A stretch of DNA of 47,490 bases, from NCBI GenBank assembly GCA_964647695.1, contig CAZYIS010000005.1, positions 1-47,490 on the forward strand. The letters run 5' to 3'. Source of the DNA: Candidatus Woesearchaeota archaeon (lineage in GTDB: Archaea; Nanobdellota; Nanobdellia; Pacearchaeales; GW2011-AR1). Position numbers and translations under genes: made by a program. The notes under the pieces are model-generated. The model worked only from the letters and a program-made list of their open reading frames with translations, was not told the DNA's origin and ran no database searches. Numbering within the stretch: the first letter of the stretch is position 1; the number at the start of each line of letters is the position of its first letter. Of the stretch, positions 376-4,342 are shown one piece after another.

Positions 376-600
376 TTATTTTTTGTAACCTAGATAGTAG
401 GCTGGACCAGCGAATATCTTTCCAGTCTTAAGATCTTTCCAAATTCCGGCAGCGATTCTTACGGCTCTACCGTTGGAATGTGGTGATTTTTGTTTCTTTC
501 TTTGAATAGCTTCAATGGTATTATATTCATTTCTTACTCTAGTTCCATAACCTGCACCAAATTTACCTGCTGCTTTAATCTTTTTAGTTTTACTTCCCAT
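376..600 (-). CDS. rpl37ae: 50S ribosomal protein eL43 (L37Ae), cysteine-less variant
   Basis: AGKFGAGYG, GIW and FAGPAY motifs; synteny with rpo12/pfdB. Confidence 0.9.
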   Translation of the reverse strand: MGSKTKKIKAAGKFGAGYGTRVRNEYNTIEAIQRKKQKSPHSNGRAVRIAAGIWKDLKTGKIFAGPAYYLGYKK

Positions 601-688
601 ATTTTCTTGAGAAAAAGATGCTTTTTAAACTATTCGATTTGAGCCCACTATTGAAAAACATTATAAATAAAGGCAAGTCTAAATTTTT

Positions 689-1108
689 ATGGATATAAAA
701 GTAATTGCTCTGGATATATGGGGAACTGTGTTGCCTAGCGATGATGCTGATAAAGAACTTAGACCTAGAAATGGAATTGAATCATTTTTAGAAGAATGTG
801 AAAGAAGAAAGATTAAAGTTGTTTCTGCATCCGATGCACCTATAGAGACGGTTAGAATCGATATGGTTGACTATGGAATAAATATAGAGAGATTTGATAG
901 ATTTTATCAATTAAAAATGGTACCTAAGAATTTTTCTCAAATTATATCGGACTATGGAATAAAACCAAGAGAACTGCTGGTTATTGGAGATACTCCTGGA
1001 AAAGATATTGAAGGAGCAATTATTGCAGGAGCAGAATATAGATTAGTTAATTCTTATAGGTCGCATCAAGATGATTTTGATTTTTCACGAGATGTTTTTA
1101 AAAAATAA
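689..1108 (+). CDS. HAD-superfamily hydrolase
   Basis: Motif I DIWGT; motif IV IGDTPGKDIEGA. Confidence 0.8.
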   Translation: MDIKVIALDIWGTVLPSDDADKELRPRNGIESFLEECERRKIKVVSASDAPIETVRIDMVDYGINIERFDRFYQLKMVPKNFSQIISDYGIKPRELLVIGDTPGKDIEGAIIAGAEYRLVNSYRSHQDDFDFSRDVFKK

Positions 1109-1110
1109 AA

Positions 1111-1184
1111 TGGGGATACCCGGATTTCAACCGGGGTCGCGAAGTCCCAAACCTCGAATGTTAAGCAGGCTGCACCATATCCCC
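1111..1184 (-). tRNA. tRNA-Pro(UGG), intronless, CCA not encoded
   Basis: GGGGATA/TATCCCC acceptor stem; anticodon arm CGAGG-TTTGGGA-CTTCG; T arm CCCGG-TTGAAAT-CCGGG. Confidence 0.93.
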
Positions 1185-1269
1185 TATCTAAATAAGATAA
1201 AAAATAGGTTTTTAAATTGTTGCAAAAAATAATCTAAATGTTTATAATATACTTAATAAGAAAAAATTT

Positions 1270-2529
1270 ATGTCCTCTAAGAAGATTAAACAACCATTAT
1301 TCCATCATGAGGTCGTAAGATATCTGCAAAAAGTTACGGATAATCCTTGGGAACGATCAACAAGAGAGGTAATTTTCAAAATATTTCCTTCTAAACTCAG
1401 TGCTTATAATTTGGGAATATCGATCAAACATGGAGTTGGTGATGAATTAAGAGAAGTTTACGAAAGAGAATTTATGGCTAGAACAAGTCATTATATTGAA
1501 AAATCCTGTGAACAGGAAAACCTTTCCATAGCTACTTTCAAAGCAGTTTTTAGACCAAATATACCTCTAATTGTAAAAAGAACATTAGATGCAAGATATA
1601 TGAATCCTAACTTTCAATTTATTTATAGAGATTTTTCTGGATATCCGTTATCAAAAGATGCAAAGGAAACCAATAGATCAATATTTATGATGCGAATGAG
1701 CGATACCATAAGGCTTCTGGCAGGCAGCGAACATTTTAAAGGAGTTTGTGAAGATTATGAATTGGTTCAAGAGGTAAAAAATAATCCCGATAAATTCTGT
1801 GAACTAGAGAAGAAGTGCATGGGGCAATTGAGAAGATTTAGTGCTAATACTATTAAGGGAATAGATAAAGAATCTCAACAACAGGAAGGATTATTGGCAA
1901 TATGGGCTGCAGCTCAAGTGTATGAAGGAAGAAACTTGGCAAGGTTTACAACTTTGGCAAAGACGGCATTGAATAATAAATTTATTAGTTTGATAAGATA
2001 TAGTCAAGCAACAAAAAGGAAAGCTAATCGCCATTTGTTGGATTTAGGAAGAGCATCATTTTCGAAAGATTCTTTTCCAGCAAGTTTATTGGATAGGTTG
2101 GTTTATGAACAATGGGAAAGACAACAAGCAGTTTATGATGCAATTGATACTGGAATTAGTGCTAAAAGATTGAAAAACTTATCAGAAGAGGAGATAAATA
2201 CGCTTAGACAAGCTGAATTTTCAGGAAGAGCAATTTCTCCTGCCGAGTTAAATTCTGATTTAATTAATCTGCCGCCAATGTACAAGTGGCTGTATCGTAA
2301 TAAAGGATTTGAAATGGGAAGGTTTGATACTTTAGCTAGAATACAGCAAAATGGAGATCCCAATCATTTGGTTGAAGTGGATGAAACTAATTTTCCACAT
2401 CTAAACGAAAAAGAAATAGATTTATCTCATTCGGTTGAAAGACTAGATTGGGAAGACTTGAATGCCTATGAACAATCTAAATTAATGGGTAAAAATTTAA
2501 GTTATACTGATGATGATTACGGAAATTAA
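1270..2529 (+). CDS. Hypothetical protein with sigma-70 region 2-like (SigH/ComX-like) domain
   Basis: GIDKESQQQEGLLAIWAAAQVY...FTTLAKTALNNKFISLIR...KR matches the sigma region 2 pattern by eye. Confidence 0.55.
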   Translation: MSSKKIKQPLFHHEVVRYLQKVTDNPWERSTREVIFKIFPSKLSAYNLGISIKHGVGDELREVYEREFMARTSHYIEKSCEQENLSIATFKAVFRPNIPLIVKRTLDARYMNPNFQFIYRDFSGYPLSKDAKETNRSIFMMRMSDTIRLLAGSEHFKGVCEDYELVQEVKNNPDKFCELEKKCMGQLRRFSANTIKGIDKESQQQEGLLAIWAAAQVYEGRNLARFTTLAKTALNNKFISLIRYSQATKRKANRHLLDLGRASFSKDSFPASLLDRLVYEQWERQQAVYDAIDTGISAKRLKNLSEEEINTLRQAEFSGRAISPAELNSDLINLPPMYKWLYRNKGFEMGRFDTLARIQQNGDPNHLVEVDETNFPHLNEKEIDLSHSVERLDWEDLNAYEQSKLMGKNLSYTDDDYGN

Positions 2530-2547
2530 TATCGATTCTGAAACTAA

Positions 2548-3036
2548 CTAAATAAGAGTTCCGTCAAAACTATTATTAATGTAATCTTGTAAATCTGATG
2601 ATTTTCTTGAGGTGTGGAGGAATTTTTTCCAGGCTTTTACTTCATGTTCTACTATTCCTAATTCCCAAACACAATAGTTACCTTCATTTTTTGTATCTAA
2701 AGTCCTTAAAGTTTCCCTCATATTTTCTGGCTTGTCAAAACCAAATAAATCGTTATTTAATAGCGTTGGAAATTCTCCACCCCAGATTGAAACATTGATA
2801 TAACCATCTGAAACAATTCCAAAACCTACCCCTAATCTTTTCTTAATTCTTCCATCTCCTAACATTTCAGATATCAAAGATCCAGCAGTAGCCATTGCTT
2901 CTCTTGAAAATGGTTTATCGGGAAGTGAAGTTTTTGAATACATCTTAATAGCTGAATCTGGAGCATAGACTACTGGAGGAAATGGAGTTACAAACCAGGG
3001 TTTCATAACATAATCTTGTAAACTTGTTTCGGTCAT
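2548..3036 (-). CDS. Hypothetical protein
   Basis: 162-aa ORF with upstream TATA-like element; no family recognised. Confidence 0.6.
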   Translation of the reverse strand: MTETSLQDYVMKPWFVTPFPPVVYAPDSAIKMYSKTSLPDKPFSREAMATAGSLISEMLGDGRIKKRLGVGFGIVSDGYINVSIWGGEFPTLLNNDLFGFDKPENMRETLRTLDTKNEGNYCVWELGIVEHEVKAWKKFLHTSRKSSDLQDYINNSFDGTLI

Positions 3037-3094
3037 GAAAAGTTCGATTAAAAATAATATATAAATTTAACTAAATTAAAAATTCAGACAGAAA

Positions 3095-3826
3095 TTATTT
3101 CTTCTTGGCTGCAGGTTTGGCTTCTGCTTTGGCTGCGGCTGGTGCTGCTGCTGGTGTTGCTCCGGCTGCAGGGGCTGCTCCTGGTGCTGCGGCTGCTCCA
3201 GCGGCTGGTGCTGCTGCGGCTGCTGCTGCTTTGGCTGCTTCTTCAGCTGCTTTAGCATCTGCAATTGCCTTCTGATCCTTATCTTGTTTATCCTTAAGAA
3301 CTTTATAGAAGTCGGCTAATTGTTTCTTCTTTTCTGCAGAAACTTCGGTCTTTCCAGATTTGATTTCTTTATCGTAAACTCCGGCTTCAATATCTCTTTC
3401 GATATCTCTTCCGTTCTTATTATCAACAATTACTCCAAGTGAGACGCAGGTTCCAGCTACTAATTTAACTGCTGCTTTCAAATCTTTGGCCAATAAATTT
3501 GATTGTTTGGTTTTTGCAATATCTAGAATTTGTTCGAATGCAATGTTTGCAACTTGATATCCGCCAGCAAGACCTGATCCTTTGTCAAGAGCTGCTGCTT
3601 TTTTGATTAATTCAGCTACTGGTGGTGAAAATACTTTTATCTTGTAGGTTTTAGTTTTAGAATCTACATCAATTTCAACTGGGACTTTGGTTCCTTTGAA
3701 ACCTAGAGTTGCAGCGTTAACGTCAGCGATGACTTTACCCATGTTTATACCTAGAGGTCCGATTTGCTGAGCTACAGCTGGCCCTGGTTTCATGTCTCCG
3801 CCGTCAACTATTAATTTTACTATCAT
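3095..3826 (-). CDS. rpl11: 50S ribosomal protein uL11 with long Ala/Pro-rich C-terminal extension
   Basis: GGDMKPGPAVAQQIGPLGIN, KVPVEI, GTCVSLG; downstream of spt5. Confidence 0.95.
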   Translation of the reverse strand: MIVKLIVDGGDMKPGPAVAQQIGPLGINMGKVIADVNAATLGFKGTKVPVEIDVDSKTKTYKIKVFSPPVAELIKKAAALDKGSGLAGGYQVANIAFEQILDIAKTKQSNLLAKDLKAAVKLVAGTCVSLGVIVDNKNGRDIERDIEAGVYDKEIKSGKTEVSAEKKKQLADFYKVLKDKQDKDQKAIADAKAAEEAAKAAAAAAAPAAGAAAAPGAAPAAGATPAAAPAAAKAEAKPAAKKK

Positions 3827-3832
3827 GTTTGT

Positions 3833-4342
3833 TTATTCGAATGTGAATTCGTCATCCTCCTCTTCGATCTTGATTTCCTTTCTCTCATCCGTATCTTTTT
3901 CCTTATCTTCACGCCTTATAACCTTTACGTTATCTATTTTTACAGTGACAGGAATAGGTACTGATGCTCCAAGAAGAGAAACTACTACTTCTCCTTTGGC
4001 CTTGTCAATTCTTGTAACCTTAGCTTGTTCTCCTTTGAATGTGGATCCGATCATTTCAACAATGTCTCCAACTTCGATGTGATAATCTTCAGCCTTAGGT
4101 TCAATCATGTTCTTTATTTCGGCATAATTTACGGTTTTACCGACGATGCCTTTCACATAGGGTAGATTGAATGCTGCTTCTTCGGCAGAGTCTTTATCCA
4201 GAGCTTCTAAAATCATGTAACCCTTAAGTCCATGAGGTCTTATCAATGAAAAAACATTTAGATTTTTTTTCTCGATTCTTTGTAATATCATTTCCAAAGC
4301 TCGGTCTTCCTTATTTGTTGTGACTTTTATTATAAATAACAT
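3833..4342 (-). CDS. spt5: Transcription elongation factor Spt5 (NusG family)
   Basis: NGN domain (LKGYMILEA) plus KOW (GDIVEMIGSTFKGEQAKV). Confidence 0.95.
   Translation of the reverse strand: MLFIIKVTTNKEDRALEMILQRIEKKNLNVFSLIRPHGLKGYMILEALDKDSAEEAAFNLPYVKGIVGKTVNYAEIKNMIEPKAEDYHIEVGDIVEMIGSTFKGEQAKVTRIDKAKGEVVVSLLGASVPIPVTVKIDNVKVIRREDKEKDTDERKEIKIEEEDDEFTFE

Follow-up and report, generated by a model that had tools for sequence, protein, structure and literature searches.

A sigma-70 domain 2 without detectable region 3 or 4 in a protein family of DPANN archaea

Sigma factors on one side and TBP/TFB on the other mark the textbook divide between bacterial and archaeal/eukaryotic transcription initiation. 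What, then, could a sigma domain do in an archaeal chromosome? The question is raised by a gene in a 47,490-nucleotide stretch of DNA from a Candidatus Woesearchaeota archaeon (NCBI GenBank assembly GCA_964647695.1, contig CAZYIS010000005.1, positions 1 to 47,490 of the forward strand), referred to here as the window. The encoded protein, P0001, had been singled out from the letters of the DNA alone (the original prediction) for a SigH-type sigma region 1.2/2 pattern at nt ~1750–2030. We find that this pattern is genuine. Residues ~157–260 of P0001 are a sigma-70 domain 2 (regions 1.2–2.4; sigma-2 in the following), the protein is very probably a true sigma-2 homologue within an archaeal gene family, and its gene is archaeal and chromosomal.

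The sigma-2 module of P0001

Taken as a single protein, P0001 is borderline. Pfam aligns residues 204–246 with positions 27–69 of the 71 in the Sigma70_r2 profile at an E-value (E) of 0.12 and 12.6 bits, against a cut-off of 24. All six NCBIfam matches at E ≤ 1 are sigma factors and fall on one stretch (residues 161–268), the best being the type III-E CRISPR-associated RpoE-like sigma factor (4.2e-4), SigH (1.1e-3) and the sigma70-extracytoplasmic function (ECF) superfamily (3.7e-3). A PDB sequence search with P0001 alone returned no match at E ≤ 10.

The sigma-2 identity is settled by evidence at the level of the family, namely by its profile, its relatives and its structure. An exhaustive phmmer search from P0001 against 1.84 billion representative proteins found 48 proteins at E ≤ 1e-3 (the query counted), 42 of them at E ≤ 1e-10, and gave 43 relatives with lengths of 148–560 amino acids (aa). 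Ordinary short sigma factors make up four of the five weakest matches (P0044, P0046, P0047 and P0048; E 5e-5 to 7.5e-4); these carry Sigma70_r2 at 44–57 bits and, with the exception of a 112-aa fragment, region 4, and their best NCBIfam models are SigH (85–104 bits, below the cut-offs). Sigma70_r2 is matched at E ≤ 0.01 by 16 of the 43 relatives. At the Pfam level, two of these relatives pass the Sigma70_r2 cut-off (35.2 bits for P0031, 28.5 bits for P0025); P0001 alone is sub-threshold and has no region 4 match. When the profile of the 44 family sequences was compared with five true sigma factors, hhalign returned a probability of 98.1% (E 1.1e-13, 104 columns). The alignment places P0001 residues 157–259 onto sigma positions 5–108, and both the QEG motif and the conserved helix-loop-helix that follows it are aligned with the true sigmas.

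The structural comparison points the same way. An AlphaFold2 model of P0001, built from a six-sequence alignment, has a mean per-residue confidence (pLDDT) of 67, with most blocks in 41–240 at 80 or above. VIA-align superimposes residues 157–258 on sigma region 1.2/2 with Z-scores of 11.0–7.9 and a root-mean-square deviation mostly of 2.3–3.6 Å over 72–105 residues; all 50 listed entries are sigma chains, and the best is the Bacillus subtilis SigH model 9a4r_A (Z 11.0). Foldseek with the whole model against the PDB, on the other hand, gave a best E of 4e-3, which is not significant, although its rows are mostly sigmas. Nothing was found at E ≤ 0.001 when the whole model was compared with viral models.

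The SigH-type flavour noted at the outset is also borne out, by the NCBIfam SigH match, by 9a4r_A as the best structure and by the SigH models on which the closest true sigmas score best. The module is probably of SigH/ECF-like descent, the closest true sigmas being SigH-like. The peptides quoted for the pattern were located at residues 161–182, 197–250 and 299–311.

The sigma-2 stretch is the best-conserved part of the family, with a mean top-residue frequency of 0.53 versus 0.22–0.33 elsewhere (44 sequences). The QEG motif is present in 37 of the 44 sequences, and seven residues are near-invariant: Q205, E206, W212, Y218, F226, L234 and R250. These span the stretch aligned to the region 2.2–2.4 part of true sigmas. 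All 44 family open reading frames (ORFs) are open at identities of 18–48%, and the sigma-2 stretch is, as judged from the alignment, under purifying selection.

The remaining sigma regions were not detected. P0001 has no Pfam match to region 3 or 4 at E ≤ 1, and its 43 relatives have none at E ≤ 0.01, in a search in which three of the four true sigmas matched region 4. The alignment between family and true sigmas ends at sigma position 108, and the C-terminal part of the nine closest members compared with true sigmas gave an hhalign probability of 0.06%. We therefore reject the earlier reading of LKNLSEEEINTLR as the start of region 4; conservation of this peptide is confined to the closest subfamily, and no alignment to region 4 is seen. 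Since the C-terminal half is poorly modelled, a remnant of region 4 at the level of the fold could escape these searches. As far as sequence goes, P0001 is a sigma domain 2 without detectable region 3 or 4.

An N-terminal extension had been predicted as well, and about 156–160 residues indeed precede sigma-2. Residues 1–39 are poorly conserved (mean top-residue frequency 0.23, gaps 0.40), and the domain behind them is confidently folded when the N-terminal part is modelled alone with 38 sequences (pLDDT 94.1, predicted template-modelling score 0.83). In a VIA-align comparison with 48,161 PDB representatives, sigma-2 domains fill 12 of the top 13 rows (SigK, SigE, CnrH, sigmaE region 2, SigC and others), with Z-scores of 6.1–4.4 that lie beneath the program's stated noise level for helical proteins. 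Foldseek against the PDB found nothing (E ≥ 0.43), and a search of the ESM Atlas with residues 1–156 gave no match above the chance range and named no family. A tandem of two sigma-2 domains is a lead only, since these sub-threshold VIA-align rows alone carry it. We rejected an internal duplication: hhalign gave 0.5% for the N-terminal domain against the protein's own sigma-2, and 0.1% for the tail against sigma-2.

A PDB search with the family profile found no sigma factor, only 14 weak matches to ribosomal protein uL29 (E 0.041–0.43). These bacterial chains match P0001 residues ~128–175 (window ~1651–1794), that is, the last helix pair of the N-terminal domain and the start of region 1.2, and have a pattern FN-R-Q...V..D...V in common with the family. 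The resemblance is probably a helical-hairpin coincidence.

Behind sigma-2, the predicted long helix contains W282, which is kept in 98% of the 44 sequences. The tail holds a subfamily motif around residues 318–334, seen in the subfamily alignment, and the NFPHLNE motif, whose general form FPH[LMFQ][NS] is present in 22 of the 44 members. The C-terminus ends in PF in 16 of 44, twice as DDDIPF; P0001 itself ends in DDDYGN. A MutS_V-domain protein of the same genome (76.9 bits; G000:C11:44–1378, + strand) ends in acidic ...EEDVPF, resembling the ...[IL]PF tips of those 16 sigma-2-only members, and this hints at a receptor for acidic ...PF tails common to the MutS_V-domain protein and the sigma-2-only family in these archaea. 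We found neither fused forms among longer proteins (735–2095 aa) nor split forms among shorter ones (30–229 aa); both are weak negatives.

Table 1. Features of P0001 and of its surroundings in the window
Feature	Position	Strand	Basis or remark
L37ae	376–600	−	Pfam
HAD hydrolase	689–1108	+	Pfam
tRNA-Pro (TGG), one border of the slot	1111–1184	−	ARAGORN
TATA-box-like TTTATAATA	1241–1249	+	Upstream of the P0001 ATG; by eye
Sigma-2-only protein gene (P0001)	1270–2529	+	ORF list and translation; 419 aa, stop codon included
Residues 1–39, predicted beta-hairpin (strands 13–21, 30–38)	1270–1386	+	AlphaFold2 model of 1–158, pLDDT 94.1
Residues 40–156, family-specific four-helix N-terminal domain	1387–1737	+	AlphaFold2, pLDDT 94; no confident known fold, topology weakly like sigma-2
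Residues 157–260, sigma-70 domain 2 (regions 1.2, 2.1–2.4), family core	1738–2049	+	hhalign, VIA-align, Pfam, NCBIfam
Residues 269–301, predicted long helix after sigma-2	2074–2172	+	AlphaFold2, low confidence (pLDDT 42–57)
Residues 302–419, low-confidence acidic tail, probably disordered	2173–2526	+	AlphaFold2, pLDDT <50 for 312–335 and 346–419
NFPHLNE motif, residues 374–380	2389–2409	+	Tail of P0001
162-aa ORF without family match, between the P0001 gene and L11	2548–3036	−	Accessory gene, not a conserved partner
rpl11	3095–3826	−	Pfam Ribosomal_L11; 3′ end of the operon is the other border of the slot
spt5/nusG	3833–4342	−	Pfam Spt5-NGN, KOW; conserved operon with rpl11

Locus and distribution of the family

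The source genome comprises 0.71 Mb in 25 contigs and is 89% complete with 0.18% contamination. Translation of the P0001 gene gives an ATG start and 419 codons without internal stops; its N-terminus matches the starts of the homologues, and M1 is kept in 91% of the 44 sequences. Since the TATA-like TTTATAATA lies 21–29 nt before the ATG, the mRNA would be leaderless or nearly so. A scan for sigma-70-type promoters flags 1220–1248 too, and the number of sites is not above that of shuffled sequences (11 vs 8.5 ± 3.1). The G+C content is even over the region (0.31–0.34).

The flanks are archaeal, as the original prediction had stated, with L37ae, L11 and Spt5-NGN recognized by Pfam. The gene occupies a variable slot. 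All eight same-genus regions have the order Spt5-L11-(0–2 variable ORFs)-L37ae, and in seven of eight tRNA-Pro adjoins L11. The P0001 gene is present in none of them, and tblastn of six family proteins found no gene remnants in the empty slots (best E 0.34). Two independent related metagenome contigs hold a homologue at this place. In one (L076), the order is L37ae, two ORFs, tRNA-Pro, the homologue (+), then L11 and Spt5 (−); in the other (L075), the homologue (+) is followed by L11 and Spt5 (−). Identities between the window and L076 are 73% for L11, 84% for Spt5, 66% for L37ae and 37% for the sigma-2-like protein, and those of the neighbours fall within the range of same-genus genomes. For L075, the values are 62% for L11, 70% for Spt5 and 36.5% for the sigma-2-like protein. 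In an Aenigmarchaeota metagenome-assembled genome (MAG), a 127-kb contig carries the homologue P0013, with rpoD on one side and L18e on the other, within an S13-S4-S11-rpoD-L18e-L13-S9 cluster.

Just upstream of tRNA-Pro, a stretch …AATrGGTTTTTAA…TTG… is conserved in the window (1198–1225), in L076 (1637–1665) and in a further locus, L036 (5962–5980). It is probably the tRNA promoter, and its conservation indicates that the slot is orthologous in the three loci.

A 14-nt direct repeat (13 of 14 positions; 1184–1197 and 2544–2557) brackets the P0001 gene, one copy flush with the tRNA-Pro 5′ end and the other 15 nt past the stop codon. We considered it as an insertion scar and rejected this, because nothing equivalent is seen in L076 and no copy is present in the empty slots of two relatives (G007 and G016); the repeat is probably due to chance.

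The 162-aa ORF between the P0001 gene and L11 has no Pfam, NCBIfam or PHROGs match. Homologues occur in two of 16 same-genus genomes at unrelated places, one genome having two copies, and the ORF is not in the slot of L075 or L076. The window's L11 carries a C-terminal extension of ~85 residues that is rich in Ala, Pro and Lys and encoded by degenerate 9–18-nt repeats (3095–3350, − strand). L11 frames of similar length (235–273 aa) are found across the genus and also in L075 and L076.

The assembly was checked for a chimera as well, and no obvious one appeared. Contigs of three lake-water runs, which may include the source sample, tile the locus at 99–100% identity (383–1252, 1283–2157, 2145–2898 and 2873–3418) without an alternative joint, 1253–1282 lying outside the bridging pieces listed; the related loci share the arrangement.

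We searched 60 relatives with P0001 (16 of the same genus, 20 from the family's other genera and 24 from the order; completeness 61–98%) and 400 other genomes of the phylum with the family profile. The profile matched three of the 400 at E ≤ 1e-5; in G391 the matching protein proved to be a normal sigma factor, which leaves two. This G391 protein (C8; L011 1078–2079, − strand) has 333 aa and carries Sigma70 regions 2 (39.9 bits), 3 (23.5) and 4 (38.6), a full-architecture sigma factor within DPANN, in a genome of the same class that is 100% complete by marker genes.

Homologues in other DPANN genomes do exist: a pattern scan of 185,579 species genomes gave 17 candidate stretches, and the four that were confirmed, two from Woesearchaeota, one from Aenigmatarchaeota and one from Nanoarchaeia, all belong to DPANN MAGs. 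In metagenomes, five of 83 candidates were confirmed, one being the same contig as L007, and none of six pattern candidates in viral contigs. All named homologues are from DPANN (Woesearchaeota, Nanoarchaeota and Aenigmarchaeota), and the three with an NCBI name are called "hypothetical protein". The family is small and unannotated, of about 350–450-aa proteins, and seen so far only in DPANN.

Possible roles of P0001

The machinery on which such a protein might act is archaeal. The source genome encodes TFB and Spt5, and PF04997 identifies a single gene for the largest subunit of RNA polymerase (RNAP; Rpb1 family), which is interrupted by nothing but an assembly break, its two parts lying at contig ends that overlap (end of G000:C15, start of C13). 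Rpb1-family orthologues are present in 38 of 40 other genomes of the order (loci L043–L072), and the matching frame of 1095–1203 aa suggests a fused A′+A″ subunit. Only this archaeal-type gene was found in the 89%-complete genome, and no bacterial-type RNAP core (beta′).

We consider P0001 to be best explained as a functional accessory gene of a DPANN archaeon. Its sigma-2 module would dock on the clamp coiled-coil of the large subunit (RpoA) of archaeal RNAP, which is the homologue of the bacterial beta′ clamp helices, and unwound non-template DNA may be held by it as well. Through its tail motifs the protein would be tethered to another partner, and the overall plan would be that of phage T4 gp55. 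In archaea, Spt4/5 and TFE dock on this clamp coiled-coil; P0001 might be an accessory transcription regulator beside or against TFE and Spt4/5, not one that replaces TBP/TFB. Its binding to RNAP, its binding to DNA and its regulatory role are what we infer. An accessory regulator whose targets are the archaeal RNAP clamp, unwound DNA or both is a tentative reading of P0001, plausible and still short of probable. We co-folded the RpoA clamp fragment (186 aa, 30-row alignment) with P0001 residues 150–265; the score was 0.00 twice, without controls, and weighs neither way.

Several observations count against a role on RNAP. Archaeal initiation needs no sigma factor. P0001 itself lies under every curated family cut-off in Pfam and NCBIfam, in NCBIfam far under. 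There is no detectable sequence kinship with gp55, for PHROGs gives only phrog_34937 (function unknown; E 0.075), and that outside sigma-2. The C-terminal half is modelled at low confidence. P0001 is dispensable, having no match in any of the 60 sampled relatives, and the family is present in only two of the 400 sampled phylum genomes. An all-against-all BLASTP of the ORFs in eight loci matched only the sigma-2-like proteins and thus revealed no conserved partner gene. P0001 has also changed much more rapidly than its neighbours (37% identity in L076, where theirs is 66–84%), a pace that suits a gene of conflict or interaction no less than a core transcription factor.

The more specific form of this reading, which we consider unlikely, is a DPANN-domesticated sigma-2 module on the Pol II-like archaeal RNAP clamp that competes with or supplements TFE and Spt4/5, perhaps as a degenerate sigma-2 tandem (N-terminal domain plus core) that is tail-tethered like gp55. 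If true, no regulator derived from a sigma factor would have preceded it on a multisubunit RNAP outside bacteria.

Some of these same observations point to a sigma-2 fold co-opted away from RNAP, as a module that binds single-stranded DNA or protein within a rapidly evolving system of conflict or host interaction (antiviral, anti-plasmid or symbiont-host) and whose tail peptides recruit factors. The patchy presence of the gene (0/60 and 2/400) agrees with such a role, as does its position in a variable slot beside a tRNA gene, where same-genus genomes hold nothing or unrelated ORFs. So does its divergence, at about twice the rate of the neighbours (37% identity vs 62–84% for the flanks). The best NCBIfam match is a type III-E CRISPR-associated sigma, although far under its cut-off, and two NCBIfam models, MzaA and CAS_III-E_sigma, place sigma-family proteins in defence systems by their names. 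However, the eight loci contain no conserved neighbour or linked defence gene (PADLOC was not searched) and none of the six viral-contig candidates was confirmed. Moreover, the best-conserved stretch is the part aligned to region 2 of true sigmas, as a role directed at RNAP predicts. We regard such a function away from RNAP as somewhat unlikely, yet as the main alternative and one to be taken seriously.

The same 0.7-Mb genome encodes a second sigma-like protein of 218 aa (G000:C2:11555–12211, + strand; L002 1339–1995), whose gene converges on that of TFB (L002 1999–2931, −). It matches Sigma70_r4_2 at 56.4 bits, region 2 weakly at 16.9 bits and the sigma70-ECF superfamily at 60.7 bits, and it is sporadic, occurring in one of the 60 relatives with this query. 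P0001 could be a sigma mimic that acts on this protein or on its partner by PhyR-like titration; that the short sigma lies next to TFB, and that the relevant passages of PMC8204110 report no anti-sigma factors found in DPANN, would suit such a mimic. Yet the two genes lie on different contigs and the short sigma is as rare as stated, which makes this explanation improbable.

The bacterial SSB tail has an acidic ...IPF form, and P0001 might accordingly be an effector against a bacterial partner, with sigma-2 gripping bacterial RNAP and an acidic ...IPF tip mimicking the SSB tail. The PF ends of 16 of the 44 members, two of them DDDIPF, would fit, as would a sigma-2 core near bacterial SigH-like sigmas and the absence of a bacterial-type SSB (PF00436) from the 89%-complete genome. 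P0001 itself, however, lacks the PF tip, and neither a secretion signal nor a secretion system is associated with it. The endogenous MutS_V-domain protein also ends in acidic VPF, which suggests a receptor for PF tails inside the archaeon, and known DPANN hosts are archaea. We consider an effector of this kind very improbable.

Just as improbable is a decaying, functionless relic of a horizontally acquired bacterial sigma gene, an option that the original prediction had left standing. The scores below every curated cut-off, the loss of regions 3 and 4 and the dispensability of the gene in relatives would be expected of a relic. Against this, the ORF is intact over 419 aa, and across the 43 relatives near-invariant residues are concentrated in sigma-2, the best-conserved part, at identities of only 18–48%. 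The N-terminal addition, too, is conserved and has a confidently predicted fold (pLDDT 94), and the slot is conserved in three lineages.

An artefact by bacterial contamination or chimeric assembly is scarcely credible, since, 1253–1282 apart (which no bridging contig listed for the three runs covers), lake-water contigs tile 383–3418 with no alternative joint, the G+C content is even at 0.31–0.34, archaeal genes and a tRNA gene lie on both sides, L075 and L076 are independent contigs arranged alike, and the archaeal contigs that carry homologues reach 127 kb.

A conserved, archaeon-only family that has kept just the sigma module that grips the polymerase and melts DNA makes a question testable, namely whether this module can work on the archaeal clamp, at the site of Spt5/NusG and TFE. 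Should it not act on RNAP, the family would show clearly how a sigma-2 fold has been turned to another use by symbionts with reduced genomes, in accessory genes that evolve fast. Both ways, ~40 sequence clusters now annotated as hypothetical protein receive a name and a domain map.

Comparison with known systems

Sigma-70 genes have been reported from DPANN before. The relevant passages of Castelle et al. 2021 (PMC8204110) describe them (fam00359) especially in Woesearchaeota, state that no anti-sigma factors were found with them and give the mechanism as not known. Like P0001, these proteins and the 218-aa protein described above are sigma-family proteins of DPANN chromosomes. Unlike the short DPANN sigmas, members of the P0001 family are about twice as long and sigma-2-only, have private flanking domains and carry no annotation. 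Of the 43 relatives, 41 lie under the Pfam cut-off, so that Pfam misses most of the family. Full-text literature searches gave no relevant paper besides PMC8204110 on DPANN sigma-like genes and PMC7892883 on gp55.

The domain 2 of SigH/ECF sigmas (PF04542; TIGR02859, TIGR02937; 9a4r_A, 8x6g_H, 4lup_A, 1or7_A) is homologous to P0001 157–260 in sequence and fold. P0001 differs from these proteins by the absence of detectable regions 3 and 4, by ~156 N-terminal and 160 C-terminal residues of no known family, by its archaeal host with TFB and an archaeal RNAP, and by scores far below the cut-offs. Against the SigH equivalog model (TIGR02859 / PRK08295), it reaches 18.5 bits compared with a cut-off of 294.8, over profile positions 6–114 of 198. 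The type III-E CRISPR-associated sigma (NF041236) is its best NCBIfam match (residues 170–263), at 20.3 bits against a cut-off of 100; P0001 is unlike it in having no detectable region 4 and in that no cas gene is found among the ORFs annotated next to any homologue.

The closest parallel in plan may be T4 gp55, the late-promoter specificity factor of that phage. In the part of PMC7892883 that concerns this protein, sigma region 2 is described as contacting the beta′ clamp helices and reading the −10 element, and gp55 as keeping only a sigma-R2 homology domain, to which are joined a helix-loop-helix and, on a linker at the C-terminus, a peptide that binds the sliding clamp. With five helices, gp55 is much smaller than P0001, and it acts on bacterial RNAP with gp33 and gp45. 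NusG can take the clamp helices after gp55 has departed, according to the same account. Both proteins have sigma-R2 alone, and the extended helix/helix-loop-helix, disordered termini and short C-terminal partner peptide reported for gp55 may have their parallel in P0001, where sigma-2 is followed by a predicted long helix (269–301, low confidence) and a probably disordered tail with conserved motifs.

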